DNA from: Rhodothermales bacterium
GTDB taxonomy: Bacteria > Bacteroidota > Rhodothermia > Rhodothermales > BA12
Direction of reading: 5' to 3'
Assembly (NCBI GenBank): GCA_963740755.1
Contig: CAVUFJ010000011.1
Span: 80,822 to 144,821, forward strand
Length of the DNA stretch: 64,000 bases
Shown here: positions 18,326 to 64,000 of the stretch, piece by piece
Layout: every line of letters begins with the position of its first letter
How positions within the stretch are numbered: the first letter of the stretch is position 1
The notes under the pieces: model-generated
The model's input: only the letters and a program-made list of their open reading frames with translations
Database searches by the model: none
What the model was told of the DNA's origin: nothing
Made by a program: the position numbers and the translations under genes

Positions 18326-18565
18326 TCAGGCGGCCGTCTTGCCTTCCAGGTACGACGTAGCGTCGCCGACGGTCGAGATCTTCTCGGCGTCCTCGTCGGG
18401 GATCGTCACGTTGAACTGCTTCTCGAACTCCATGACGAGCTCGACGATGTCGAGCGAGTCGGCGCCGAGGTCGTTCGTGAACGAGGCTTCGGGCTTGATA
18501 TCGGCCTCGTCTACGCCGAGCTTGTCGACGATGATGGCCTTGACTTTTTCTGCGACCTGACTCAT
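18326..18565 (-). CDS. acpP: Acyl carrier protein
   Basis: 79 aa. The DSLD phosphopantetheine site lies in [16 protein letters not shown]. Confidence 0.95.
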
Positions 18566-20179: not shown

Positions 20180-22735
20180 ATGCCCCTTCGCCCAGTTCGT
20201 TGCCCCGCTGCTTGCCGGGGCCCTCGTGCTCGCTGCCTGCACGTCGAGCCGTTCCACCCCGGCTTCCCCGCCGTCCGCCACGCCGCCCAGTGCGGCCGCC
20301 ACAGCTCCCCCGGCCGCAGGGGCCACGCCCCCGGCGGCCGGCACGCCCGCGCGACCGGCAGCGGCTCCGACGGGGCCGAAGCCGTTTGCGGAGACCGTGC
20401 GCGGGATGCGCGCCGACAGCGGACTCGTGACGGTGTACCGCAACGACACCAAGCTGCTCTTCGCGGTCGCCGACACGCTCTTCGGGCGCGACTTGCTCTG
20501 GCTCACGCGCGTGTCCGCCGTGCCCGCCGGGCTGGGCGGCTTCGTGACGCCGGGCGTCAACCTGAACGAGAGCGTCGTGCGCTTCGAGCGGCGCGGCGAC
20601 CGCGTGCTGCTGCGCGAAGTTCAGCTACGACCAGGTGGCCGCCGATTCCCTGCCCGATTGCGCGCGCCGTGGCGCGGGGCCAACTTCGCGCCCGTGCTCG
20701 CCTCGCTGCCCGTGCAGAGCTACGCGCCCGATTCGAGCGTGGTGCTCGACGTGACGGCGCTCTTCGAGAAGGACACCCCCGCCTTTGCCGGGCTCACGGC
20801 CACGCAGCGCACCACCTACCAGGTGCGGCGCCTAGACGAGTCGCGCAGCTTCATCAACACGGCGCGGAGCTACCCGCTCAACGTGGAGGTCAACCACACG
20901 CTCACCTACGACGCCGGGCGCCCGCCGTCCGACGTCGATGCCGGCACGATCTCGATGGAGCTGCAGCAGTCGCTCGTGCTGCTGCCGAAAACGCCCATGC
21001 GGCCCGCGCATCGCGGACGAGCGCGTGGGCTACTTCACCGTCGATCAGATCAACTTCGGCGCCGCCGATCAGCAGGCCGTGCGGCAGCAGTTCATCCGCC
21101 GGTGGCGCCTGGAGCCCAAAGACCCGGCGGCCTACGCCCGGCGCGAACTGACAGAGCCCGTCAAGCCCATCGTCTACTACCTCGACCCGGCCACGCCCGC
21201 CGAGTGGCGCTCGTGCGTGATGCAGGGCGTGAACGACTGGCAGAAGCCGTTCGAAACCGCGGGCTTCAAAAACGCCATCGAGGCGCGCTTGCCCCCCACC
21301 GACGACCCCGACTGGAGCGCCGACGACGTGCGCTACTCGACCGTCCGCTGGGCGGCGAGCCTGACGCGCAACGCGATGGGCCCGAGCGTGAGCGACCCGC
21401 GCACGGGCGAGATCATCGAGTCCGACATCGTGTGGTACCACAACCACCTTCGCTCCTACCGCAACCGGATCATGCTGGAGACGGGCGCCGCCAACCCGCT
21501 CGCCCGCACCCTCCCCATCGACACCGGGGCTCATGTGCGAGGCGATGCGGCAGGTGATTGCCCACGAGATCGGCCACGCGCTCGGCTTTCCGCACAACAT
21601 GGGCGCGAGCAGCGCCTACCCGGTCGACTCGCTCCGTAACCCGTCGTTCGTGCGGCGGATGGGCGTGGCGCCGTCCGTGATGGACTATGCGCGCCAGAAC
21701 TACGTGGCCCAGCCCGGCGACGGCCTTGTGGGCACCGACTTTCTGCGCCAGATCGGGCCGTACGACCACTACGCCGTCAACTGGGGCTACCGCGTGATTC
21801 CCGTCTGCCGCGACGCCCGAGGCCGAGAAGCCGATCCTCCACCACTGGATCCTCGCGCACGCGGGCGACCCGGTGTACCGCTTCAACGGCGGCGGGGGCT
21901 TCGACCCGAGCGCGCAGACCGAGGACATCGGCAGCGACCCGGTGGCCGCGAGCACGCTCGGCATCGCCAACCTGAAGCGCGTGGCGCCGCAGCCTGCTCG
22001 CGTGGACGACGAAGCCGGGCGAGGACTACACGAACCTGACCGAGCTCTACGGCGAACTCGTGGGCCAGTGGCAGCGCTACGTCGGGCACGTGCTCACGCT
22101 CGTGGGCGGGCGTCGTAGAGACGCACAAGACGTCCGATGAAACCGGCAACGTGTACACGCCCGTGCCGGCCGCGCAGCAGCGGGCGGCGATGGCGTTCGC
22201 TGGCGCGCGAGGTGTTCGAGGCGCCCACGTGGCTCACCGACGATGCCGTGCTGGGCCGCATCGAAGCCACCGGCGGGCTCGACCGGATCACCGGCGCGCA
22301 GGCGAACGTGGTGAACAGCCTGCTCTCCACCGCCCGCCTCCAGCGCCTCGCCGACGCCGCGGTCCGTGATGGATTTGCGTATTCCCCCACGAGCTTCTTC
22401 GACGACCTCCGCGCGGGCGTCTGGGGCCGCGGCGCGCCCGACGTGTACCGCCGCGCCGCTCCAGCGCGCCTACGTGGAGCGCCTGACCACGCTCCTCAAC
22501 CCGCCGGACGCGCCCGCCACGGCCTCCCCGATCCCCGGCGCCCCGAGCCCCGCCGCGCAGCAGGCCGCCGTGCTCCGCTCCGACATCCAGCCGCTCGTGC
22601 GCGCCGAACTCGCAGACGCTCCAGCGACGAGCGCCCGCGCCGCCGCCCGCGCCACAAGCGACCGGCTCGTGCGCGCCCACTACGAAGACCTCGCCACAGC
22701 GCGCCGCCCGCGCCCTCGACCCGAACGCGTGATTG
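20180..22735 (+). CDS. Large secreted zinc metalloprotease lipoprotein (metzincin-type HEIGHALGFPH motif), heavily frameshifted; its 3' end abuts the low-GC island
   Basis: Reconstructed start MPFAQFVAPLLAGALVLAAC after removing one extra C at 20184. HEIGHALGFPHNMGASSAYPVDSL...VMDYARQNY. Homology runs through at least seven frames up to about 22735. Confidence 0.7.
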
Positions 22736-24568
22736 CTTCATCACGTCATCTTGTATCGCCTAACCATCTAGAAACATGGATGTAGTAACACAGAGCCTGC
22801 TTGGCGAATTTACTTCAAGCCAGAAGCTTGAAAATCTGGCCCAGTCTGATCAATTTGAGGCGTTTGTAAACTACATCGTTATATCAGACCTATACCCTGA
22901 AGAATTTGATTACAGTGTTGTGTCTACAGGCACGGGTGAGTTTGGTATTGATGGCATAGCAATAATCGTCAATGATTCAATCATAGATATGGCGAGGATC
23001 AGATGGATGATATTATATCGAATGTTCCTGTCATTCAGGCCCATTTTGTGTTTGTTCAGTCGAAAACAAGTGCATCTTTCGATGTTGGAGACATGTCTAA
23101 GTTTTTGTAGGCAGTAGTTGATTTTTTCAAGCAGGAAATATCTTTTAGCCAAACGACAAGATATTGGAGCTCCAGAGGGTCAAGAACAAGCTTTTTAAGA
23201 GCGCATCTAAGTTTGCCAGGGGGCTTCCTAAGATATCTCTATACTACGCCACTACTGGCACATGGAATGATGACCAAAATCTTTGTGCGACTAGAGATTT
23301 ATTTGTCGGTCAACTAAACAACCTTCACATATTTGAGTCGGTTAAGTTTTATCCGCTTGGGGCTAGCAAGGTGCAAAAGCTGTATTTTCAGACAAAGAAT
23401 GCATTCAGGGTGTCGATAAACTTTGCCCAGAATCTTTCACTGCCTGAAATACCTGGGGTCAGAGAGTCGTACATCGGACTCTGCCTGTATCTGAATACAT
23501 GAAAATGATTACAGATGAAGCAGGGAACGTAAGAAGAAGGCTATTTTTTGACAATATTAGGGATTTTCAGGGCGAAACCTCTGTAAATAAATCAATTAAG
23601 GAAACGCTTGTTTCACCAAACAGTATTGAGTTTCCACTGAGGAATAACGGTATTACCATAGTAGCACGCAAGCTCCAGAGGGTTGGGTCTCAGTTTACGT
23701 TAGAGGATTATCAAGTTGTAAATGGTTGTCAAACCAGTCATGTCATAGCGTCCACGGGAAAGAAAGATGATCATGATACCATGATACCCATAAAGATTAT
23801 ATCTACAGAAGACGAGGAGATCACAAGACAGGTGATAATTGCTTCTAACCAACAAAATAAGGTAGATCAGGAGAGTTTTTGGACCCTCGCTCCCATTCAT
23901 AAGTCAATTGAGGTATATTTTGATTCAAAGCCTGGCGACCACAAGCTGCATTACGAGAGGAGGCCAGGTCAATTCAATACATTGAACGGCATAGAAAAGG
24001 TTAGAATAGTTACCAAGGACTCACTATTGAAGGTTTATGCATCTGTATTTCTCGAGCAACCTAACCAGGTTGGTAGGTATTATAAAGACCTAACACCGCT
24101 TATTGGTAAAGAAATATTCTCCCCAGATCACGAGGTGAATTCGTATTATACAGCTGCTATACATAGCTTATAGACTGGAGTTTATGTTTCGCAATAAAAA
24201 AATGGATCCTGAATGGAAGCCTTTTAGATTCCAAATTATGATGGCAACTCGCCTCTTGATAGAGAAGGATTTGAAATTAGAACCTAAAAAAAGAGGTCAA
24301 AGCAATATTGTGCCGCAATAGATGCCGTAATGGTTGGACCCAGAGAAAGCACAAGCCGTTTTTGAGCGAGCAACAAGCTTGATCTCAAAGGCTATATCTC
24401 TGCTTAAGGATCAGGATGCTAAGCTTGACCGACGGACCGCTAAAATGCGAGACATGAGAGACAAACTCAGAGACGTTATATCTAAACAAGACACGCGATG
24501 ATTTTGTGTGTATCAACTAAGTGAATTCTTCACATTTATGCCAATATTGTCCCTCAGACGACGCTAGA
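22732..24568. mobile_element. Horizontally acquired low-GC island (~1.84 kb, roughly 35-40% GC by eye) carrying an abortive-infection gene; no integrase or transposase
   Basis: Abrupt composition change at both ends. Flanked by the metzincin 3' end on the left and a displaced DUF445 3' fragment on the right. Confidence 0.7.
22776..24173 (+). CDS. AIPR-family abortive infection (phage resistance) protein in three frameshifted pieces; it may continue in two further small ORFs to about 24490
   Basis: N-terminus FEAFVNYIVISDLYPEEFDY...GEFGIDGIAIIVND. AIPR-core motifs FFDNIRDFQG...NNGITIVA and QVVNGCQTSHVI. Pieces 22776-23117, 23164-23502 and 23499-24173. Confidence 0.6.
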
Positions 24569-24578
24569 ATCCGAGCGT

Positions 24579-24745
24579 TCACCCGAGCCAGGTGGTCAGC
24601 AGATAGAGGAGCGCGCCGACGAGACCGCCCACCAGCGTGCCGTTGATGCGGATCCACTGCGGACCTTGCCGACGGCGACTTCGATGCGGTCAGGCGACGG
24701 CCTCGGCGGGCCAGTGCTCGATCGTGTCGCGCATGCCCCTGCACG
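24579..24745 (-). pseudogene. Displaced, diverged fragment of a DUF445 gene 3' end (~85% identical to 25438-25610); it keeps the native stop codon
   Basis: Minus-strand translation ...[38 protein letters not shown] against ...[42 protein letters not shown] in the intact gene. Confidence 0.55.
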
Positions 24746-24821
24746 TAGCTCCAGTGTGTCCGGAACTCTCTCCGCCCCGAATTAACGTCGATGAGGCCTC
24801 CGTTTTACACATCCCGGATCG

Positions 24822-25035
24822 ATGCCTGCCGTTTTCGCGTATCGCCCAAATTTCAGGTCGTCATCCCTCGCCGCGTGCGGGAGGCGCTCCGCATCGAGCC
24901 TGGTCAGCAGGTCGAGGTCATCGCGCACGGCGACCGCATCGAACTCATCCCGGTGCGCCCCATCCAGCAGATGCGCGGTTTTCTGACGGGGCTAGACACC
25001 CTGAATTGGGCGGGAGCAAGACCAGGGCGCTATGA
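24822..25035 (+). CDS. vapB: AbrB/SpoVT-type antitoxin (VapB-like), frameshifted near its start
   Basis: VSPKFQVVIPRRVREALRIEPGQQVEVIAHGDRIELIPV swapped-hairpin motif. ATGA overlap with the next gene at 25032. Confidence 0.6.
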
Positions 25036-25460
25036 ACGTCGTCGATTCCTCCGGATGGCTCGAATACTTCGCCGGGAGCGCCCGGGCGGACTTTTTCGCC
25101 CCTGCCATTGAGGACACGGCAGCGCTCGTTGTGCCGGTGGATCACGCTTTATGAGGTGTACAAGCGCGTACGCCAGCAGCGCAGTGAGATTGAAGACGTT
25201 TACAGGCGGTCGGGGAAATGCAGCAAGGCCGTCTTGTCGATCTCGATAGGAGCCTCGCCCTACGGGCCGCCCAACTGAGTCTCGCGCATCGCCTCCCCAT
25301 GGCGGACAGCCTGATCTTGGCGACGGCGCGGGCCCTGGAGGCAGAACTCTGGACCCAAAACGCTCACTTCGAGGGACTCGCCGGGGACGATATCAGCGTA
25401 AAGCGTGAGCCGCAAGCTCGCGCGGACGCCGTGCAGCCGAGCCAGGTGGTGAGCAGGTAG
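25032..25460 (+). CDS. vapC: PIN-domain toxin (VapC-like) with two frameshifts; its 3' end overlaps the DUF445 gene convergently
   Basis: [35 protein letters not shown]...YEVYKRV...[49 protein letters not shown]. Confidence 0.65.
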
Positions 25461-39219: not shown

Positions 39220-39279
39220 GGCGCTGCCTCCGTGCGGCCCCGGCGGTGATCCGGGCGGGCTGCGCGGCGTTCTGGCTCC

Positions 39280-39777
39280 ATGTCCAACTTTCGCGGCCAC
39301 CTGTTCGGCGCGGCGCTCTTCGGGGTGCTCTACCTCGGCGCCTTCGCGGCCCTCTACGCCGTAGACGGCGCGTATGCGCAGTTCTCGCTGCCCGAGCGCG
39401 TGGCCTACCCGGCGGCGCTCTTCGGGCTGTGCCTGCTCTTCGGCCTCTGGCCCGACGTAGACACGCACTCGGTGGGGCAGAAGGTGTTCTACGCCATTTT
39501 CTTCGTGGCCGACCTCGCGCTCATCCTCACGCAGCGCTTTCAGGAGTCGGCCTACTTCGGGCTCGCCGCCATCCTCCCCATCCTGAGCAAACACCGGGGG
39601 TGGACCCACACGCTCTGGGCGATGCTGCTCGTGCCATCGCCCCTGTTCGTGCTGCCGTACCTGTCGCTGCCGGCGCGTCCGCTCGCCGGGCTCCCGTTCT
39701 ACGGCGCCGCCGTGATGGGCTACGCCAGCCACCTCGTCTTCGACGGCATGCTCTTTTCCCGCCGCAAGCGCCGCTGA
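39280..39777 (+). CDS. Membrane-bound metal-dependent hydrolase (YdjM/DUF457-like)
   Basis: Intact 165 aa with four TMs and conserved His/Asp (...WPDVDTHS...HRGWTHTLWA...HLVFDG). Confidence 0.55.
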   Translation: MSNFRGHLFGAALFGVLYLGAFAALYAVDGAYAQFSLPERVAYPAALFGLCLLFGLWPDVDTHSVGQKVFYAIFFVADLALILTQRFQESAYFGLAAILPILSKHRGWTHTLWAMLLVPSPLFVLPYLSLPARPLAGLPFYGAAVMGYASHLVFDGMLFSRRKRR

Positions 39778-40075: not shown

Positions 40076-41728
40076 TTGAGCCGTCTCCGCAAGCTCGCCT
40101 CCGACACGGCCGTCTACGGGCTCTCGTCCATCCTCGGGCGGATGCTCAACTTCCTGCTCGTGCCGTTCTACACGCAGGTGTTCACGCGCGAGGAGGTGGG
40201 CGTGATCACGCTCGTGTTTCTGGCCTTCGTCTTCCTGAACATCCTGTTCACGTACGGGCTGGAGTCGGCCTACCTCAAGTACGCCTCGGGCCAGGAGGGG
40301 CGCGCGCGCGTCGTGGAGGTGTTCTCGACGGCCACGTTCTCGCTCCTCGCCACGAGCGCCGTGCTCGGGCTCGGGATCGTGCTCTTTCCCGGCGTGCTGC
40401 AAGGCCTGTTCGGCTTCGGCGCAGGCGCGCCGTACCTCGTGGCCGTCGTCGCGCTCACGCTCGTGCTCGACACGCTCACCAAGGTGCCGCTCGCCGAACT
40501 CCGCCTCGCCGGGCGCCCGTGGATGTTCGCGGTGGCCAACTTCGCCAACATCGGGGCCAACATCCTGCTCACGCTCGTGCTCGTGCTCAAGTACAAGCGC
40601 GGCGTGGCGGGCGTGTTCGAGGCCAACCTGATGGGGAGCGTGGCGCAGCTCGCCGTGCTCGCGCCGCTCTACGTGCAACTGCTGCGCCCGCGCTTTCACC
40701 GGGCCATCTGGCGCGACCTCGTGGCCTTTGGCCTGCCGTTCGTGCCGGGCGGCGTGGGCTACGCGCTCACCGACCGCGTGAGCACCATTGGCCTGCAAAA
40801 GCTGCCCTCGGCCGTGCCCGGCGCCTCCGGCGAGGCGCTCGTGGGCCTCTACGGCGCGGCGCCCAAGCTGGGCGTGTTCATGATGCTCGCCGTGCAGATG
40901 TTCAGGTTCGCCTGGCAGCCCTTCTTCCTCCAGCACGCCGACGACGCCGACGCGCGCCCGCTCTTTGCGCGCGTGTTCACGCTCTTCAACGCGGGCCTGT
41001 GGGCGTTCTTCCTCGGCGTGGCCTTCTACGCCCGCGAGATCGCCACGCTGCCGCTGCCGGGCGGGCGGACGCTTATCCAGGCGTCGTTTCTGCCGGGGCT
41101 CGTGGCGGTGCCGCTCGTGCTCGGCTCGTACCTGCTCCAGGGCTGGTACTACGCCTTCTCGGCGGGCCTCTACATCGAGAAGCAGACCAAGTATTTCGTC
41201 CACGCCACCGTCGCGGGGGCGGTGGCGGCCATCGTCGCCACGGTGCTGCTCGTGCCCCGGCTCGGACTCGTGGGCGCGGGCGCGGCGAGTGTGGCGGGCT
41301 ACGGGGCGATGGCCCTCGCGCTCTACGTGTACGCACAGCGGGCCTACCCGCTCCCGTTCAACTGGCGCCGCGCCGGGGGCACCGCCGCGCTCGCGCTCGC
41401 GCTCTTTGGCGCGTGGGCGCTCGTGCCGGTGCTCCAGCGCTGGTTCATCGAAGGGTTGCTCCTGGCGGCCTACGGAGCGGGCCTCGTGGCGCTCGGCGTG
41501 GTGCCGCGCGGACTGCTCACGCGGATCGGGCGGCGCCCGGCGCGTCCGCAGGCGCCGCCCGAGGAGCCCGGCGAGAGCGCCCGCACCGGCGCGCAGCTGG
41601 CCGACCTCGCCGCCGACCCGGCCGCGCTCGCCGACAACACCGACGCGCCGGACGCCTCGGCGCCCTCGCCGCCGCCCGCCTCCACCCCCTCGGAGGCGCC
41701 CGGCCCGGCGCCCTCCGAGCCGTCGTGA
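40076..41728 (+). CDS. Wzx-like oligosaccharide/lipid flippase (polysaccharide biosynthesis protein family); TTG start inferred
   Basis: About 12-14 TMs. N-terminal LRKLASDTAVYGLSSILGRMLNFLLVPFYT, typical of Wzx/MOP flippases. Confidence 0.7.
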   Translation: MSRLRKLASDTAVYGLSSILGRMLNFLLVPFYTQVFTREEVGVITLVFLAFVFLNILFTYGLESAYLKYASGQEGRARVVEVFSTATFSLLATSAVLGLGIVLFPGVLQGLFGFGAGAPYLVAVVALTLVLDTLTKVPLAELRLAGRPWMFAVANFANIGANILLTLVLVLKYKRGVAGVFEANLMGSVAQLAVLAPLYVQLLRPRFHRAIWRDLVAFGLPFVPGGVGYALTDRVSTIGLQKLPSAVPGASGEALVGLYGAAPKLGVFMMLAVQMFRFAWQPFFLQHADDADARPLFARVFTLFNAGLWAFFLGVAFYAREIATLPLPGGRTLIQASFLPGLVAVPLVLGSYLLQGWYYAFSAGLYIEKQTKYFVHATVAGAVAAIVATVLLVPRLGLVGAGAASVAGYGAMALALYVYAQRAYPLPFNWRRAGGTAALALALFGAWALVPVLQRWFIEGLLLAAYGAGLVALGVVPRGLLTRIGRRPARPQAPPEEPGESARTGAQLADLAADPAALADNTDAPDASAPSPPPASTPSEAPGPAPSEPS

Positions 41729-42781
41729 CGCCCCCGCCCACGCCCACCGCTTCGCCCGCGCCGGGCTTTGCGCCGCGCGCCGGGCGCGTGCTCGTGACGG
41801 GCGCGACGGGCTTTCTCGGCGGCGCCCTCGCCCGCGCCCTCCACGCCCGCGGGCGCGCCGTCACCGCGACAGGCCGGGATGCCCGCGCCGGCGCCGCACT
41901 GGAGGCCGAGGGCATCCCCTTCGCCCGCCTCGACCTCGGCGACGCCGATGCGGTGCATCGCCTCGTGGAGGGCCACGCCGCCGTGATCCACAGCGCCGCC
42001 CTCGCCGCGCCGTATGGGCGGGCCGCCGATTTCTGGCGCGCCAACGTGCAGGCCACCGCCCATGTGCTCGGCGCGTGCCAGGCCGCCGGCGTGCAGCGCC
42101 TCGTCCACCTCTCGACGCCCTCCGTCTACTTCGGCTTCGAGAGCCGCGAAGACGTCCGCGAGTCCGACGAACTGCCCGCCCTGCCGCGCACCCCCTACGC
42201 CGCCTCGAAGCGCCTCGCCGACGTGCTCGTGCGCGCGGCCGTAGCCGAGGGCCTGAGCGCGATCCTGCTGCGCCCGCGCGCGATCTATGGCCCCGGCGAC
42301 CGGGCGGTGCTGCCGCGCCTGATCCGCGCGCTGCGCACGGGCCGCCTGCCCATCATCGGCGACGGGCACAACCGCGTGAGCATGACCTACATCGACCACG
42401 CCGTAGACGCCGCAATCCGCGCGCTCGACGCCCCGGACGCCCTCTCGGGCCGCATCTACAACGTGGCCGATGGCGAGCCTGTAGCGCTGTGGGCGATGAT
42501 CGCGGCGCTCTGCGACCGGCTGGGCCTGCCGCGCCCCACGCGCCACGTTTCGCTCGCGCGGATGATGCGCGTCGGCGGCGTGCTCGAAGCCGGTGTACCG
42601 CCGCCTGCTCCCGGGCCGCGAGCCCGTGCTGACGCGCTACAGCGTGGCCGTGGTGGGCTGCTCGCAGACGCTCGACACCACCGCGCTCCGCCGCGACCTC
42701 GGCTTCCGCCCGTGGGTGACGCCGGAAGAGGGGCTAGCGCGCTTTGCCGCGTGGTGGCAGGCGCAGGAGGCGACGCCGTGA
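41725..42781 (+). CDS. NAD-dependent epimerase/dehydratase (3-beta-HSD-like SDR) with one frameshift
   Basis: VLVTGATGFLGGALARAL Rossmann motif. YAASK catalytic pair. GTG start overlaps the flippase stop. Frame break at about 42595. Confidence 0.75.
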
Positions 42782-43596
42782 GCGGCTGGCGCCTCGCGTG
42801 GCTCGAAGCCGGCGCGTGCCGGGCGCCCGAGCGCCTCTCGCGCGGCGATGGCCGCTGGCGGACGCACCGCTTTCCGGCGGGCGTGGGCCTGCTCGAAGGG
42901 CACGGGCGGATCGTCCTCTTCGACACCGGCTACGCCCCGCGCTACCGCCCCGTGATGCAGTGCACGCTCCCGCACCGGCTCCTCACGCGCGCCCTCGCGC
43001 CCGTCGTGACGCCCTCGGCGGCAGACCTGCTCGCCGCCCGGGGGATCGCGCCCGAGGCCGTCACCGACGTGTTCGTGTCGCACTTCCACACCGACCATGT
43101 GGGCGGCCTGCGCGACTTTCCGCACGCCCGCTTTCACGCCCACCCGGAGGCGCTGCGTCCCGTGCGCGCCCCGCACGGCGTGGACGAACGCGGCGGGCTA
43201 CGCCGCCGCCTTCCTGCCGGACGACTTCGACGCGCGCTTCACGCCCCTCCGGCACCGCGTGGCGCTCCCGCCCGTGCTCGCCCCGTTCGCCGAGGGCTAC
43301 CGCGTGTTCGGCGACGAGCACCACGCTCGCGCTCGACCTCCCCGGCCACGCGCCGGGCCAGGTGGGCCTCTACGTGGAGACGGACGCGGGCCCGTGGCTT
43401 CTCGCCGCCGACGCCGCCTGGCACATCGACGCGCTCGTGGACGATAAGGGCCGCGCCCTCGGCGCTCGGGATGCGCCTCCAGCACGACGCCCGCGCCTAC
43501 CGCGCCACCCAGCACGCCCTGCGCACGGTGATCGCCCGCCACCCCGGCCTCACCGTGGCGGTGAGCCACGACGCCCCCCGCCGGTTCGGCCCGTAG
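42778..43596 (+). CDS. MBL-fold metallo-hydrolase with about three frameshifts
   Basis: VSHFHTDHVGGL (HxHxDH). ...LDLPGHAPGQVGLYVETDAGPWLLAADAAWHIDAL. Start overlaps the epimerase stop. Confidence 0.6.
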   Translation: MSGWRLAWLEAGACRAPERLSRGDGRWRTHRFPAGVGLLEGHGRIVLFDTGYAPRYRPVMQCTLPHRLLTRALAPVVTPSAADLLAARGIAPEAVTDVFVSHFHTDHVGGLRDFPHARFHAHPEALRPVRAPHGVDERGGLRRRLPAGRLRRALHAPPAPRGAPARARPVRRGLPRVRRRAPRSRSTSPATRRARWASTWRRTRARGFSPPTPPGTSTRSWTIRAAPSALGMRLQHDARAYRATQHALRTVIARHPGLTVAVSHDAPRRFGP

Positions 43597-43644
43597 GGGC
43601 CCCATGAATGGGGCCCTTCCATCGAGTCGCACGGCGACGCGGGA

Positions 43645-45063
43645 ATGTCGCAGGGGAACGCGGGGCTAGATGGGGCGGAAGGCGATCTTGGGGTTCACCG
43701 TTTGCCTGTGCCCACCCTTCTCGCCTCCCGCCTGCGTCTGCTCGGCGCCTACGCGGCCACGCGGGTCCGCCGCTTTGGCACGCGCGCCGCACTCGGAGGC
43801 TGGCAGGAGCAGCAGGTGCAACGCCATCTCGCGTGGGTCGCGGCGCGGTCGCCCTTTCACGCCGCGCGCTTTGCCGGGCAGATCGGCCGCTGGCGCGAGG
43901 TGCCGCCCGTCGGCAAGGCCGAGATGATGGCGCACTTCGACCGCTTCAACACGGCGGGCATTCGGCTAGACGACGCGCTCGCGGTGGCGCTGCAGGCCGA
44001 GGGCGAGCGGGACTTTGCGCCCCTCCTGCCCGGCGGGATCGCGGTGGGGCTCTCGTCCGGCACGTCCGGCAACCGGGGCGTCTTTCTGGCAGGGCCCGCC
44101 GAGCGCGACGCCTGGGCCGGGACGATGCTGGCCCACGTGCTGCCGGGCGCGCTCCTCGGACGGCACCGCGTGGCCTTCTTTCTCCGCGCGAACTCGGCCC
44201 TCTACAGCCGCCTCGGCAGCCGGCGCCTCCAGTTTCAGTTTTTCGACCTGCTCGACAGCCCCGCGCAGCACGTTGCCCGGCTGCGCCGCTTTCAGCCCAC
44301 AGTCCTCGCCGCCCCGCCGTCCATGCTTCGGCTCCTCGCCGAGGCGCAGCACGCGGGCCGCCTCTCGCTCGCCCCGGCGAAGGTGCTCTCGGTGGCCGAG
44401 GTGCTCGACCCGGTGGACCGCGCGGTCATCGAAGCCGCCTGGGGGCCGGTCCACGAGGTCTACCAGGCCACCGAGGGGCTGCTCGGCGTCACCTGCGCGC
44501 ACGGCACGCTCCACCTGTGCGAGACGCACGCCGTGATCGAGCGCGAGGGCATCGGCGACCCGGCGGAGGGCCGCTTCACGCCCGTCATCACCGACTTCCG
44601 GCGCCGCACGCAGCCCATCCTCCGCCACCGCCTCGACGACGTGCTCGTGCTCCGCCCCGACCCCTGCCCGTGCGGCTCGGTCCTCACCGCGCTCGCCCGC
44701 ATCGAAGGCCGCGCCGACGACGTGTTCTGGCTCGCCGGGTCGCACGGGCGCCGCGTGCCCCTCTTCCCCGACTTTGTGCGCCGCGCCGTGCTCATCGGCG
44801 CCCCGGAGGCCGACGCCTACACCGCCACGCAGACCGGCCCGGACGCCGTGGCCTTTGCCCTGCGCCTGCCGGACGCGCGCCGCGCGGAGGCCGAAGCCGG
44901 GGTGCGCGCGGCCTGGGACGCCGTGTGCGCCCGCGTGGGCGCGCCGCCGCCCGTGCTCACGTTTGAGGCGCTCGGCGCGGAAGCCGTGGGCGGGGCCAAG
45001 CGCCGCCGCGTGGTGCGGGCGTGGCACCCCGGGGACGTGCCGGTGGCCCTGGAGGCCGCATGA
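43645..45063 (+). CDS. PaaK/F390-synthetase-family adenylate-forming enzyme (acyl- or aryl-CoA ligase-like)
   Basis: Intact 472 aa. GLSSGTSGNRGVF (AMP-binding P-loop-like S/T-G-T-S-G). ...YQATEG. Overall PaaK-like layout. Confidence 0.7.
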   Translation: MSQGNAGLDGAEGDLGVHRLPVPTLLASRLRLLGAYAATRVRRFGTRAALGGWQEQQVQRHLAWVAARSPFHAARFAGQIGRWREVPPVGKAEMMAHFDRFNTAGIRLDDALAVALQAEGERDFAPLLPGGIAVGLSSGTSGNRGVFLAGPAERDAWAGTMLAHVLPGALLGRHRVAFFLRANSALYSRLGSRRLQFQFFDLLDSPAQHVARLRRFQPTVLAAPPSMLRLLAEAQHAGRLSLAPAKVLSVAEVLDPVDRAVIEAAWGPVHEVYQATEGLLGVTCAHGTLHLCETHAVIEREGIGDPAEGRFTPVITDFRRRTQPILRHRLDDVLVLRPDPCPCGSVLTALARIEGRADDVFWLAGSHGRRVPLFPDFVRRAVLIGAPEADAYTATQTGPDAVAFALRLPDARRAEAEAGVRAAWDAVCARVGAPPPVLTFEALGAEAVGGAKRRRVVRAWHPGDVPVALEAA

Positions 45064-46052
45064 GCCTGCGCCGCGTCCAGATCGCCGGGGTGGGCGGGTT
45101 CTTGCCGCCGCACGTGGTGCCGAGCGCCGAGGTGGAGGCGCGCTGCGGCGTGCCGGAGGGCTGGGCGGAGGCCCGCGCGGGCGTGCGGGAGCGCCGCGAC
45201 GCGTGCGGGATGCCCGCCTCCGCGATGGGCGCGGAGGCCGCGCAGCAGGCGCTCGCCATGGCCGGCCTCGCCGCCGCCGACCTCGACCTCGTGCTCGGCG
45301 CCTGCGGCACGCAGGAGCAGGCCATCCCCGACACCGCCGCGCTGATCCACCGCGCGCTCGGTCTGGCCGGCACGGGCATCCCCGCCTTCTCGGTCCACGC
45401 CACCTGCCTGAGCTTTGTCGTCGCCCTCGACCTCGCGGCCACGCTCATCGACGCCGGGCGCTACCGCCGCATCCTGATCGTGAGCGCCGACATCGGCACG
45501 GTGGGGGCGAATCCGGCGCAGCCCGAGAGCGCCGTGCTGCTGGGCGATGCGGCGGCGGCGGTCGTGCTCGTGCGGGCGCCGGAGGGCAGCGCCTCGGCGG
45601 TCGAGGCGGCGCGCTTCGAGACGTACTCGGAAGGCGCTGCGGCCACCGAGATTCGGGGCGGCGGCTCACGGCGGCCCCCCAACGCCGCGCACACTCTTCC
45701 GGACGACAACCTCTTCAGCATGGACGGGCGCGCGGTGCTGCGGCTCGCGCGCACCCACACGCCGGGCTTTCTGGAGGCGCTGCGGCCTGGCCTCTCCACC
45801 GGCCTTGCGGGCGTGGACCTCGTGGTGCCGCATCAGTCGAGCGCGATGGGGCTGCGCCTCATGGAAGGCCTTGGCTGGCCGGCCGCGCGCATCGTGTGGA
45901 CGCTCCCGTGGACGGGCAACGTGATCGCGGCGGGCATCCCGTTCGCCCTCGCCCACGCCGTCGAAACCGGACGCCTGCAGCGGGGCGACCGGGTGCTGCT
46001 CGTGGGCACCGGCGCCGGCCTTTCGCTCGGCGGCGTCGTGCTCACGTACTGA
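45060..46052 (+). CDS. 3-oxoacyl-ACP synthase III-like (KAS III / FabH family) condensing enzyme
   Basis: Active-site Cys in SVHATCLSFVVAL. His/Asn region ...VPHQSSAMG...WTGNVIAAGIPFAL. ATGA overlap with the upstream gene. Confidence 0.75.
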   Translation: MSLRRVQIAGVGGFLPPHVVPSAEVEARCGVPEGWAEARAGVRERRDACGMPASAMGAEAAQQALAMAGLAAADLDLVLGACGTQEQAIPDTAALIHRALGLAGTGIPAFSVHATCLSFVVALDLAATLIDAGRYRRILIVSADIGTVGANPAQPESAVLLGDAAAAVVLVRAPEGSASAVEAARFETYSEGAAATEIRGGGSRRPPNAAHTLPDDNLFSMDGRAVLRLARTHTPGFLEALRPGLSTGLAGVDLVVPHQSSAMGLRLMEGLGWPAARIVWTLPWTGNVIAAGIPFALAHAVETGRLQRGDRVLLVGTGAGLSLGGVVLTY

Positions 46053-46293: not shown

Positions 46294-47877
46294 ATGAAGC
46301 ATCTGTACCGGATTCCTGCGCTCCTGCTCGTCACGCTGGCCCTGCTGCCGGGCTGCTCCGACGCGCTCCGCGATGACGACGCCCCGTCTCCAGCGAACGC
46401 CACGCTGACCCCGCAGCACCACCTCGACGCGCAGTTTGCCAGCGCCGCCTCCGCTTTCGGGGTGCCGGTGGATCTGCTCAAGGCCATCGGGTACGCCGAG
46501 ACGCACTGGCAGATGGTGCAGGGACAGGAGGAGTTTGCGGGCATGGACGCCGCCTATGGCATCATGGCCCTGCGCGGCGCCCAGCTGACCCGTGGCGCGC
46601 AACTCGCGGGCGTTACCGAGGCCGCCGCCCGCACTGAGGTGCCGGCCAACCTCCGGGCTGCGGCGGCACTCCTGCGCGCCTATGCCGATGAGGCGGGCAT
46701 CGACCGCGACGACCTCGGCGCGTGGGCGCCCGTCGCCGCGCGCTACAGCGGTATCGTTCAGCGCGAAGGCCAGGCGGCCTACGTGCATGAGGCGGTCTAC
46801 GCCGCGCTCCACGACGGAGCCACGGTGCGCACCGAATCCGGCGAGACGGTGGCGACACTCGCGCCGCAGGCGGTGACGCCCGCGTTCCCGGCGCCCACGG
46901 CAGGCCTCGGCAAAACCGCCGCCGTCGACTTCCCCGGCGCCGTCTGGCGTCCGTCGCCCAACTACAACAGCCGTCCGGCGGGCAGCATCGGGCAGGTCGG
47001 CATGGTCATCATCCACACGTGCGAAAGCTCCTACAGCGGCTGCTGGAGCTGGCTCACCAACACGCAGTCGGGCGTGAGCGCGCACTATGTGGTCAACGAG
47101 GCGGGCTCAGAAGTGTCGCAGCTCGTGCTGCGAGGCCAACCGCGCCTGGCACATCGGCGCCACCTACGACTGCGTCAACAACAGCAACGTCGAGTGCTGG
47201 CGCAACGGCAATTCGAGCAACCACTTCACCGTGGGCATCGAGCACGGGGGCTACGCCTCGCAGACCTCCTGGCCGACCGCGCAGATCGACCTGTCGGCCA
47301 AGCTCAGCTGCGACATCTCGAAGGCCTACAACATCCCGCGCGACGTGTACCACTTTGTGGGCCACGGCCAGCTCCAGCCCGCCAGCCGCACCGATCCGGG
47401 CGCCAACTGGCCCTGGACAACCTACCTGAGCAAGATCAACGCCGAGTGCGGCAGCGGCCAGATCATCATCGACTCGAACAACAGCAACAACGACCAGAAC
47501 GTCGGCTACATCCAGGTGTCGAGCAACTGGACGTCGGCCTCCTCGACGGCGGGCTACTATGGCAGCGGCTACTACTTTGCCAACACCGCCGCCGTGAGCG
47601 ATCCAGCTGCCTTCTACTTCTACCTGCCCACCGCGCAGACGCGCACCGTGGACGCGTGGTGGACGACAGGCGCCAACCGCTCGACGACGGCGCCTTTCCA
47701 GGCCTACAACGCCGCGTGGCACGCTCCTCAGCACGGTCAACGTGAACCAGCAGGCGAATGGTGGCCAGTGGAATCAGCTCGGCACGTTCAACTTCACGGC
47801 CGGCTGGAACCGCGTGCAGCTCTCGCGCTGGACGACGACCGGTTACGTCGTGATCGCCGACGCCGTGCGCATCCGGT
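46294..47877 (+). CDS. Secreted peptidoglycan hydrolase: lysozyme/SLT-like N-domain, N-acetylmuramoyl-L-alanine amidase (Ami_2/PGRP) domain and golvesin/Xly-like C-domain; two frameshifts
   Basis: Lipobox [24 protein letters not shown]. ...[18 protein letters not shown]...HYVV...[11 protein letters not shown]...[11 protein letters not shown].... C-terminal ...[24 protein letters not shown]. Confidence 0.65.
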
Positions 47878-47928
47878 GAGCCGAGCCGCCGCGTGCCGGT
47901 ACGGGACGATTCGGGCAGGGCGCTTGCT

Positions 47929-48955
47929 GATGGCAGGCGCCCTGCTCGGGCTGGCTGCGTGCCGCCCGGCAGAGCCGCCGCTCGCACTCGCGGGGCAGGT
48001 GGCCTTCGTGTCCGAGCGCGACGGCAACCCGGAGGTGTACCGCCTCGATCTGGCCTCGGGCACCACCACGCGCCTTACGCACCGGCCTGCCTCAGACTAT
48101 CCGGCGGCGGCGCTTTCCGGCGGCGACGTGCTCGTGGTTGCAGCGGAGGGTGACGGCGCCGGAACGCGCGAATCGCTCTGGCGCGCCACGGCAGCAGGCG
48201 TGCTCCAGCCGCTCCGGCTCACCGCCCGCACGCTCCGCCATCCGGTGGTCGTGCCGGACGGGCGCACGCTCCTCTTCGAGGCCGACTTTGCGAGCGTGCG
48301 CGACCTCTACCGCTACACCTTCGCCACCGACTCGGTCGCGCGCCTCACCGACCAGCCAAGTGGCAACTACGACCCCTCGCCCGGACCAGGCGGGCGGATC
48401 GCACTTGCGTCGAGCCGGGAAGGGCAGGCCGAGGTCTACACGATGCCGGCCACCGGCGAGGGTCCCGGCGGCGATTCCCTCCGGCGCCTGACGGCCTTCC
48501 ACCGCGACGACTGGGCGCCCCGCTGGAGCCCGGATGGGCGCTGGATCGCGTTCCTGAGCCTCCGCGAGGGACCCCCGCGCCTCTTCCTCGTCTCCCCCGA
48601 CGGCACCAACCTGCGCCGCCTGCTCGCCCCATCCGACACGCTCGGGGCCGATATGCAGGAGGGCGAGGCCGTGTGGAGCCCGGACGGGCGCTTTATCGCC
48701 GTCCCGGTGCTGCCCCGTACGGGCGGCGCGCAGCTCTGGGTGGCCGACGTCGCCACGGGCCGCCGGTGGCGGGTGGGCGCCACGCTGCCCTCGGCGAGCG
48801 ACCCCGCCTGGCGCCCCGACGCCAGCGCACTCGTGTTCTCGGGCCACGCCCCCGGTGGCGACGCCGAACTCTACGCCGCCCGCCGCGACGGCACGGGCCT
48901 GACGCGCCTCACCACGAGCCCTGGCCCCGACTGGCTGCCCGTCTGGCTACGCTGA
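47929..48955 (+). CDS. TolB-like periplasmic beta-propeller protein (WD40-like repeats)
   Basis: Repeated units ...[20 protein letters not shown]..., ...[10 protein letters not shown]..., ...GQAEVYTM..., ...[11 protein letters not shown]..., ...SPDGRFIAV.... Confidence 0.6.
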
Positions 48956-52350: not shown

Positions 52351-52400
52351 GCGGTCGGCGGTACGGCGGTGGTATGTTGGGGCGGATGCCATCCCTGCCC

Positions 52401-55444
<3,044 letters not shown>

Positions 55445-59745: not shown

Positions 59746-60025
59746 TTGATAAAGTACGTGCGCAGCTGAACCTGTCAGAGTGTAACGAAAGCCCTTCCAG
59801 CATTGCAACGGAAGCCCTTCCGCCCCGGCGCGTGCCTTGACAGGCCCACAAGCGGGCGGTAACGTGCCCAACCGTCGAAGCCGGTGGGTTTTGCCTGAAG
59901 GGGCAGCGCCTGCGGTGGCGCTGCGCGTCCCGCACCGGACGCCGTTGACAAGGCTTCGGCGGACGCCCTGGCGGTGCCGTCCGGCCTGCCGCCGTGTGTC
60001 TGCGCACGAATCCCGAGGTCTGTCA

Positions 60026-64000
<3,975 letters not shown>

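Follow-up and report, generated by a model that had tools for sequence, protein, structure and literature searches.

Here we report that four adjacent genes in a Rhodothermales bacterium are one conserved, widespread gene module. The genes lie in a window of 64,000 nucleotides (assembly GCA_963740755.1, contig CAVUFJ010000011.1, positions 80,822 to 144,821 of the forward strand), of which positions 40076-46052 encode, in order, a flippase-like membrane protein, an extended short-chain dehydrogenase/reductase (SDR), a metallo-beta-lactamase-fold (MBL) hydrolase, a PaaK-like adenylate-forming enzyme related to F390 synthetase (F390rel), and a stand-alone ketosynthase (KS) with the fold of beta-ketoacyl-ACP synthase III (KAS III; ACP, acyl carrier protein). 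A first-pass annotation of the window had read all five genes as one operon for an exported lipid or glycolipid. We find that the last four constitute the module, of which the window holds a minimal copy, and that the flippase gene is a neighbour outside it. By analogy with the OleABCD pathway, we tentatively propose that the module would carry out the condensation of two acyl chains head to head, reduction, and carboxyl or lactone processing, a plausible but far from secure reading.

Searches with F390rel return 2,745 homologues at E<=1e-10. We compiled 80 genome loci around F390rel homologues and one Brevibacillus locus (81 loci, 68 of them with full flanks) and located homologues of the window genes in each. 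The KS, SDR, MBL and F390rel genes all lie on one strand in 64 of the 68 fully flanked loci, and, among the same 68, an ATP-grasp gene (PRK06849-like) is additionally present in 61 and a gene for a 396-aa protein, whose GNAT-like signal is weak at best, in 46. The commonest order is KS-ATPgrasp-SDR-MBL-F390rel-(396 aa). The relative order SDR-MBL-F390rel is constant wherever the three co-occur; the KS gene varies in position, for both the window and the Rubricoccaceae loci have it last, and locus L011 has it on the opposite strand. No ATP-grasp or 396-aa homologue is found anywhere in the 64-kb window, and the same four-gene version occurs in six of the fetched loci and in Proteobacteria. All-against-all clustering of the open reading frames adjoining the cassettes yields one other widely common neighbour family, a classical SDR (23 loci), and no conserved transporter and no polyketide synthase (PKS)-type family among the families common to the loci. 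A tblastn search with E. coli AcpP detects an acyl carrier protein (ACP) gene in none of the 81 loci. Co-conservation of the PaaK-like and KAS-III-like genes, which the first-pass annotation had itself put forward as the test of the grouping, is thus observed, together with that of the other two genes. We conclude that SDR, MBL, F390rel and KAS III form a single conserved module, present in the window in its minimal form.

The carriers include Paenibacillus, Brevibacillus, Bacillus/Metabacillus, Nostocaceae/Scytonema/Phormidium and Sericytochromatia, and also Bdellovibrionales, Polyangiales/Sandaracinaceae, Amaricoccus, Victivallaceae and Rhodothermales. By higher group, the module spans Bacillota, Cyanobacteria, Bdellovibrionota, Myxococcota, Alpha-, Beta- and Gammaproteobacteria, Victivallaceae and Rhodothermales. 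On Ketogulonicigenium plasmids, a TetR gene is followed by the order KS-SDR-MBL-F390rel-VOC. In E. coli and Ralstonia, the four genes are part of a seven-gene operon with overlapping genes, in the order KS-SDR-MBL-F390rel-PAP2 phosphatase-sterol desaturase family-acyl-CoA desaturase. The operon is present in 674 of 5,426 complete E. coli genomes (about 12%), among them CFT073 (C_RS07890-C_RS07920; locus L094, NC_004431.1 1525315-1532196), and in these genomes its site is between narI and tyrT/purU; all seven genes recur in Ralstonia wenshanensis. The E. coli module proteins are 35-41% identical to the four of the window. Loci L088 and L091 were examined for this operon together with L094.

Individual cassettes contain or adjoin further genes. 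Between the KS and SDR genes lie two GT21 (ceramide-glucosyltransferase-like) genes in L030 (4672-7925) and one in L035 (5719-7863), in each case followed by a gene for a 281-293-aa protein without a family match, and, in the Scytonema locus L021 (4690-7961), a Rieske oxygenase gene and an ABC exporter. Two-component systems lie near the Brevibacillus cassette.

The first-pass annotation could match the gene set to no characterised pathway, and we likewise found no described counterpart: the full-text literature searched, with subscription-only papers outside that search, contains no description of the cassette, and the four proteins bear only generic names in the RefSeq annotation of 2026 for E. 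coli, Ralstonia, Bacillus and Ketogulonicigenium. The protein families concerned are old, TIGR02304 dating from the early 2000s, and the window copy accordingly adds a member to a set that is annotated but uncharacterised.

The flippase gene does not belong to this set. Its product scores 30.7 bits against PF01943 Polysacc_synt (cut-off 28.2), its homologues also carry PF13440, and orthologues with 44-67% identity occur across Rhodothermales and Bacteroidota. None of the 81 cassette loci contains a flippase homologue, and the cassette is found in none of six flippase-orthologue loci examined, which represent five distinct contexts. In five other Rhodothermales contexts (L083, L084, L095, L096 and L097), which take in the closest flippase orthologues (65-67% identity), the flippase gene directly follows a gene for a YdjM-family membrane protein and has unrelated genes downstream; one further context has neither YdjM nor the cassette. 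The window retains the YdjM-flippase pair, with the module immediately downstream of the pair, and a tblastx comparison of the window with the Rubricoccaceae cassette loci, filtered at 90 bits, shows that these share the four module genes only and that their flanks are not syntenic. We conclude that the YdjM-flippase pair marks a lineage synteny into which the module is inserted, and that the flippase is a lineage-conserved neighbour, not a module member. Of the proposed five-gene operon, four genes therefore stand as a conserved module, and the flippase gene is a mere neighbour that, with a gap of 0-60 nt to the SDR gene, is possibly co-transcribed with them. Because it is absent from the 81 cassette loci and YdjM-linked elsewhere, the flippase provides no evidence for an exported glycolipid.

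The GC content of the window is 70-76%, which produces heavily overlapping mechanical open reading frames, and we resolved the genes by frame analysis of GC content at third codon positions (GC3) together with translations. The analysis upholds the first-pass description of five same-strand, tightly packed genes (Table 1): the GTGA and ATGA start/stop overlaps are present in the sequence, and the gap between the MBL and F390rel genes is 48 nt. All five family assignments likewise hold in Pfam and NCBIfam matches. The database model of the flippase gene begins at GTG 40007, upstream of the TTG start that we list. The SDR gene may start at GTG 41788, where the orthologue begins, instead of at the GTGA overlap.

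Table 1. Positions in the 64-kb window of the module, its neighbours and one frame break
Feature	Position	Strand	Family or remark
Flippase-like MOP/Wzx membrane protein	40076 (TTG) to 41728	+	PF01943 Polysacc_synt
Extended SDR, 3-beta-HSD family, OleD-like	41725 (GTGA overlap) or 41788 (GTG) to 42781	+	PF01370, PF01073
Lactonase-type MBL-fold hydrolase	42778 (GTGA) to 43596	+	Lactamase_B
F390-synthetase-related adenylate-forming enzyme (F390rel), PaaK-like	43645-45063	+	TIGR02304
Stand-alone KAS-III-fold ketosynthase (KS), MxnB/CorB-like clade	45060 (ATGA) to 46052	+	ACP_syn_III, ACP_syn_III_C
YdjM-family membrane protein	39250-39777	+	PF04307, 38.6 bits
Amidase_2-like gene	about 46294-47890		Downstream of KS; direct reading
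PD40/TolB-like gene	47876-48955		After amidase-like gene
Apparent frame break within SDR gene	42585-42595	+	Probably assembly indel

Reading through the SDR gene requires one frame change (~42590), and reading through the MBL gene requires three (~43187, ~43324 and ~43460), breaks that the first-pass annotation had missed. Rubricoccaceae orthologues align across them only with a frame switch. A survey of the whole window, using a six-frame GC3 hidden Markov path and the corresponding translations, detects +1 frame switches throughout, at about one per 1.5-2 kb; the genes with breaks include the glutamate synthase gene gltB (60022-64000), a formate-dehydrogenase-like gene (52394-55426), an M1 peptidase gene (844-2526), a metalloprotease gene (20236-22607) and the amidase-like gene. 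The frame-corrected proteins have all catalytic residues intact, and their codon GC3 is at least 0.9. Because the same breaks occur window-wide, housekeeping genes included, we conclude that those in the SDR and MBL genes are assembly indel errors and that neither gene is a pseudogene. The pattern is the signature of an indel-prone (long-read) assembly, and pseudogene calls anywhere in the window are therefore unsafe.

The KS comprises the Pfam domains ACP_syn_III and ACP_syn_III_C and, as the first-pass annotation had noted, retains the active-site Cys; indeed, the entire triad is intact (Cys116/His258/Asn287), and Cys-His-Asn is conserved in 53 of 53 cassette KS sequences. Its best matches among proteins of known structure are MxnB (4V2P, 274 bits) and CorB (4YUC, 260 bits), with weaker matches to the best FabH (133 bits), PqsD (67 bits) and OleA (about 61 bits); PqsC also appears. 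Identity to MxnB is 42% with 2 gaps, vs. 30% with 30 gaps to E. coli FabH, and identity to CorB is also 42%. The 53 cassette KS sequences give the same picture, at about 38% identity to MxnB/CorB and about 29% to FabH, and the window KS, MxnB and CorB have in common a GGGSRxPPN insertion that is absent in FabH. The score against the fabH family TIGR00747, 179.8 bits, lies below the cut-off of 292.1, and no second fabH or KAS III gene is found within the 64-kb window. [quoted passage not shown] The KS being far closer to these enzymes than to FabH, the role that the first-pass annotation had assigned to it, a dedicated KAS III that primes a chain with an unusual starter, becomes less likely.

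The SDR scores 156 bits against PF01370 Epimerase and 114 bits against PF01073 3Beta_HSD. Its best NCBIfam match, along the whole protein, is OleD (NF042422, 2-alkyl-3-oxoalkanoate reductase), which scores 252 bits here and 281 bits with the Brevibacillus orthologue. HpnA reaches 108 bits and dTDP-glucose dehydratase 94 bits, values that do not bear out the earlier description of a sugar-nucleotide-type SDR. The window protein is 59-62% identical to the SDRs of the Rubricoccaceae loci L002 and L003, its C-terminus lying in the +2 frame. Of the 64 members of the family, 62-64 retain TGxxGxxG, Ser and YxxxK, and 63 have a Gly-Arg after strand beta-2, the latter of which suggests NADPH as cofactor.

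The corrected MBL matches Lactamase_B at 51 bits over positions 8-193 of 196 (8-74 without correction) and aligns in a single tblastn alignment, nearly full length and with 46% identity, to the MBL of the Rubricoccaceae locus L003. The best NCBIfam and PDB matches are AttM/AiiA-type acyl-homoserine lactone (AHL) lactonases, 4-pyridoxolactonase and GcL; PqsE is absent from the PDB matches at E<=1e-3. The HxHxDH motif and the downstream His, Asp and His ligands are present in 57-58 of 58 MBL members, the corrected window protein included. Three residues past the bridging Asp, 57 of 58 cassette MBLs have a Trp (motif DAAW). AiiA-type lactonases have a Tyr at this position, and the Trp may mark a distinct MBL substrate class.

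F390rel is a full member of TIGR02304 (399.1 bits; cut-off 251.9), and its SSGTSG loop (S137-G142) and C-terminal Lys452 are invariant in an alignment that includes the window protein. Its best PDB matches are AjiA1 (6WUQ, 48 bits) and PaaK-like ligases, and its next NCBIfam matches are the DVU_1553 family and BagE/FevW. AjiA1 and BagE/FevW are PaaK-like enzymes that we take to be ester-forming without coenzyme A (CoA). The PF00501 score of 22 bits is below the cut-off of 29.9; that is, F390rel is not detected as an OleC-type AMP-binding enzyme. The MBL-F390rel pair also occurs without KS and SDR, in L019, L043 and L090 (the megaplasmid of Pseudomonas sp. Leaf58). OleB and OleC are known to pair, to occur as fusions and to join with OleD in an OleBCD assembly, and the persistent MBL-F390rel pair recalls this pairing. 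The closest relatives of the window F390rel (65-68% identity) are encoded by stand-alone F390-related genes beside genes for SdrD_B-domain proteins; these observations on pairs and stand-alone genes cover L090, L019, L043, L085 and L087.

According to these comparisons, two of the four enzymes, the KS (MxnB/CorB) and the SDR (OleD), are nearest by sequence to head-to-head condensation pathways. This affinity, together with the persistence of the MBL-F390rel pair, leads us to propose three stages: condensation, reduction and processing. We observe which genes are present and to which families they belong, that their catalytic residues are intact, that they are co-conserved and which characterised relatives are nearest; substrates, step order and product we infer by analogy with OleABCD and MxnB/CorB. 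In the first stage, the KS would join two acyl or 3-oxoacyl thioesters (of CoA or a housekeeping ACP) head to head in a non-decarboxylative Claisen condensation, giving a 2-substituted 3-oxo acid or a lactone (pyrone). In the second stage, the OleD-like, probably NADPH-dependent SDR would reduce the keto group. In the third stage, the paired MBL and F390rel would act on the carboxyl or lactone end, and here two versions are conceivable. In an OleC/OleB-like version, F390rel would activate the carboxylate for lactone closure or ligation, and the MBL would open or decarboxylate the product; in a version that follows the usual gene order KS-SDR-MBL-F390rel, the MBL would open a lactone made by the KS, and F390rel would activate the freed acid.

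The module product is most likely lipid-like, because the accessory genes encode a desaturase, a fatty-acid-hydroxylase-family protein and a PAP2 protein in E. coli and Ralstonia, GT21 proteins in L030 and L035, and a Rieske oxygenase and an ABC exporter in Scytonema. The exported lipid or glycolipid of the first-pass annotation is thus plausible as to the lipid, and these accessory genes, not the flippase or a sugar-nucleotide SDR, are what make it so. A more speculative extension, which we regard as doubtful, is that the module is an unrecognised multi-phylum route to new head-to-head condensed lipids or lactones, in which F390rel and the MBL would replace OleC and OleB, and that in uropathogenic E. 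coli (CFT073, C_RS07890-07920) the product would be further desaturated, hydroxylated and dephosphorylated.

Like OleABCD (also LstABCD and NltABCD), the module combines a condensing enzyme of the thiolase fold, a reductase of the 3-beta-HSD family, an adenylate-forming enzyme and, as the fourth, an enzyme of hydrolase type. The two systems also agree in the grouping of the reductase, hydrolase and adenylating genes and in a lipid product context. The module differs in that its KS is MxnB/CorB-like, not OleA-like (274 vs. about 61 bits), its adenylating enzyme is of the PaaK/F390 type (about 440 aa), not the OleC type, a lactonase-fold MBL takes the place of the OleB alpha/beta-hydrolase, which is absent here, and all equivalog cut-offs are missed. 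MxnB and CorB (myxopyronin and corallopyronin) are the closest solved relatives of the KS, with an almost gapless alignment at 42% identity, the GGGSRxPPN insertion and the triad in common, but the module has no flanking PKS assembly lines or carrier proteins, the equivalent of CorB P266 is not conserved, and a reductase, an MBL and an adenylating enzyme accompany the module KS; we know of no such partners of MxnB or CorB. PqsA-PqsD-PqsE likewise unites an adenylate-forming ligase with a KAS III and with a hydrolase of the MBL fold, but the similarity is weak (PqsD 67 bits, PqsE undetected), and the module has an SDR and no anthranilate-related genes.

Other systems share single features with the module. 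NatL2/AjiA1 with NatAM (benzoxazole formation) and BagE/FevW include PaaK-like adenylating enzymes, of which AjiA1 is the best F390rel PDB match, and in the former the adenylating enzyme is also paired with a metal-dependent hydrolase-fold partner; however, the match is 48 bits only, the partner is an amidohydrolase-superfamily protein without the MBL fold, and the enzymes act on aromatic substrates. NocG (nocuolin A) and PpyS/PyrS are stand-alone KAS-III-like enzymes that join two acyl thioesters in a Claisen condensation without decarboxylation, and in NocG/NocH and PpyS/PyrS, as might be the case here, an adenylating enzyme supplies substrates to the ketosynthase (PMC9486936, PMC4578411). 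These ketosynthases belong to clades separate from MxnB and CorB (PMC9486936, PMC4578411), and NocH is a fusion of a fatty-acyl-AMP ligase (FAAL) with an ACP, whereas the module has no ACP. We considered the nocuolin noc cluster for the cyanobacterial carriers and rejected it, given its FAAL-ACP and aminotransferase and the different KS clade of NocG; malleicyprol was also rejected, its butenolide fusion being made by a condensation (C) domain. The pathway that we propose would add a further variant to the head-to-head condensation systems based on thiolases.

Several observations weigh against the proposed Ole-like route. No module member is characterised, and no product is known. The SDR score of 252 bits is far below the OleD equivalog cut-off of 580, and the MBL scores against AttM (43.9 bits for the window protein, 103.5 bits for that of Brevibacillus) are below the cut-off of 390. 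The KS, at about 61 bits against OleA, is not recognised as an OleA-type thiolase, and at the FabH-Phe87 position, where we would expect the OleA base Glu117 to align, it has Ile (Ile or Leu in cassette KS sequences). A Glu four residues before a conserved Pro was considered as an OleA-like base and dropped, the E. coli KS having Val there. The proline two residues past the catalytic His of CorB (P266; PMC5506619), also present in MxnB in our own alignment, is Ser in the window KS and Gly (28), Ala (24) or Ser (1) in the other cassette KS sequences. Feeding by a PKS line, as for MxnB and CorB, finds no counterpart either, there being no ACP gene in the 81 loci and no shared PKS-type family. 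F390rel is of the PaaK type and not the OleC type, and a role further upstream, as a substrate-CoA ligase, is equally conceivable. Pairing a lactone synthetase with a lactonase in one pathway would be futile unless the MBL does more than simple hydrolysis. Finally, the commonest form of the cassette has an ATP-grasp ligase and the 396-aa protein, both missing here, and the product may therefore differ between cassette versions.

Two alternatives assign the four enzymes to other chemistry. According to the starter-priming hypothesis of the first-pass annotation, F390rel activates an unusual acid, which the KAS III joins to malonyl-ACP, so priming a chain of fatty-acyl or polyketide-like type; this chain is then tailored by the SDR and MBL, and the flippase exports a (glyco)lipid. 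An adenylating enzyme and a KAS III are a known priming pair, the intact Cys-His-Asn triad of decarboxylative condensation keeps this role possible for the KS, a housekeeping acpP homologue is present in the window (18332-18565), and GT21 glycosyltransferase genes lie within the cassette in L030 and L035. We nonetheless consider it unlikely: the KS is closer to MxnB/CorB (42%) than to FabH (30%) and falls under the FabH cut-off, the SDR resembles OleD and not the sugar-nucleotide enzymes, the flippase and the module are nowhere else co-located, and no conserved gene nearby encodes a dedicated ACP, a dehydratase or an enoyl reductase. A route to a small molecule or signal resembling the Pseudomonas quinolone signal (PQS) appears to us somewhat less probable again. 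Here, F390rel would be a PqsA-like CoA ligase, the KAS III a PqsD-like enzyme that elongates the thioester and the MBL a PqsE-like thioesterase that sets free a beta-keto acid, with reduction of the product by the SDR. Alkylquinolone synthesis uses the same three folds, ligase, KAS III and MBL, in the same order; PqsD and PqsC are among the KS PDB matches; and the wide, patchy distribution, plasmid carriage and nearby regulators (TetR and two-component systems) fit an accessory metabolite. However, PqsD scores 67 bits vs. 274 for MxnB, lactonases dominate the MBL PDB matches, with no PqsE at E<=1e-3, and the proteobacterial accessory genes encode lipid desaturases, a hydroxylase-family protein and PAP2.

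Two further alternatives deny the module a function here, or altogether. That the window copy is a decaying remnant, with the SDR and MBL genes as pseudogenes, would account for the one break in the former and the three in the latter, but is very improbable: the same +1 breaks occur window-wide, in gltB, the formate-dehydrogenase-like gene and peptidase genes, on which ground we rejected the pseudogene reading, and the corrected proteins retain their catalytic residues and a GC3 of at least 0.9. Chance adjacency, with the KAS III as the housekeeping FabH and the other genes unrelated to it, would fit with the lack of a second fabH gene within the 64-kb window, but we regard its likelihood as negligible and rejected it in view of the co-conservation of the four genes in 64 of 68 loci across many phyla; the TIGR00747 score is also under its cut-off, and E. 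coli strains with the cassette presumably have a normal fabH as well. The Ole-like route is the proposal that we favour, as tentatively as stated above.

Other features of the window lie outside the module. The amidase and TolB-like genes described in the first-pass annotation do follow the KS gene (Table 1), and a Pfam search of the amidase-like part at 46321-47106 returned no family. A homologue of acyl carrier protein, 54% identical to E. coli AcpP, is encoded on the - strand at 18332-18565, 27 kb upstream of the module, and is probably a housekeeping gene unlinked to the cassette. An island of low GC content at 22600-25420 (53-59%, vs. 70-76%) contains a fragmented AIPR abortive-infection gene (23499-24170; PF10592, 152 bits) and a MazE/AbrB-type antitoxin gene (24791-25111), and has the look of a defence islet gained by horizontal transfer. 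Scans with Rfam and for tRNA genes gave no hits.

The main value of the results is that they delimit a conserved pathway to four genes and set it apart from the flippase. The module is conserved from Rhodothermales and soil bacilli to the uropathogen CFT073, yet its proteins are generically named in RefSeq, and the characterised enzymes nearest to them suggest the fusion of chains through carbon-carbon bonds and lactone chemistry. Because E. coli carries the module, its function is directly testable there. The identity of the product would add a branch to the thiolase-based head-to-head pathways (Ole, beta-lactone and pyrone) and could uncover a hitherto unknown signal or membrane lipid of a major pathogen lineage.

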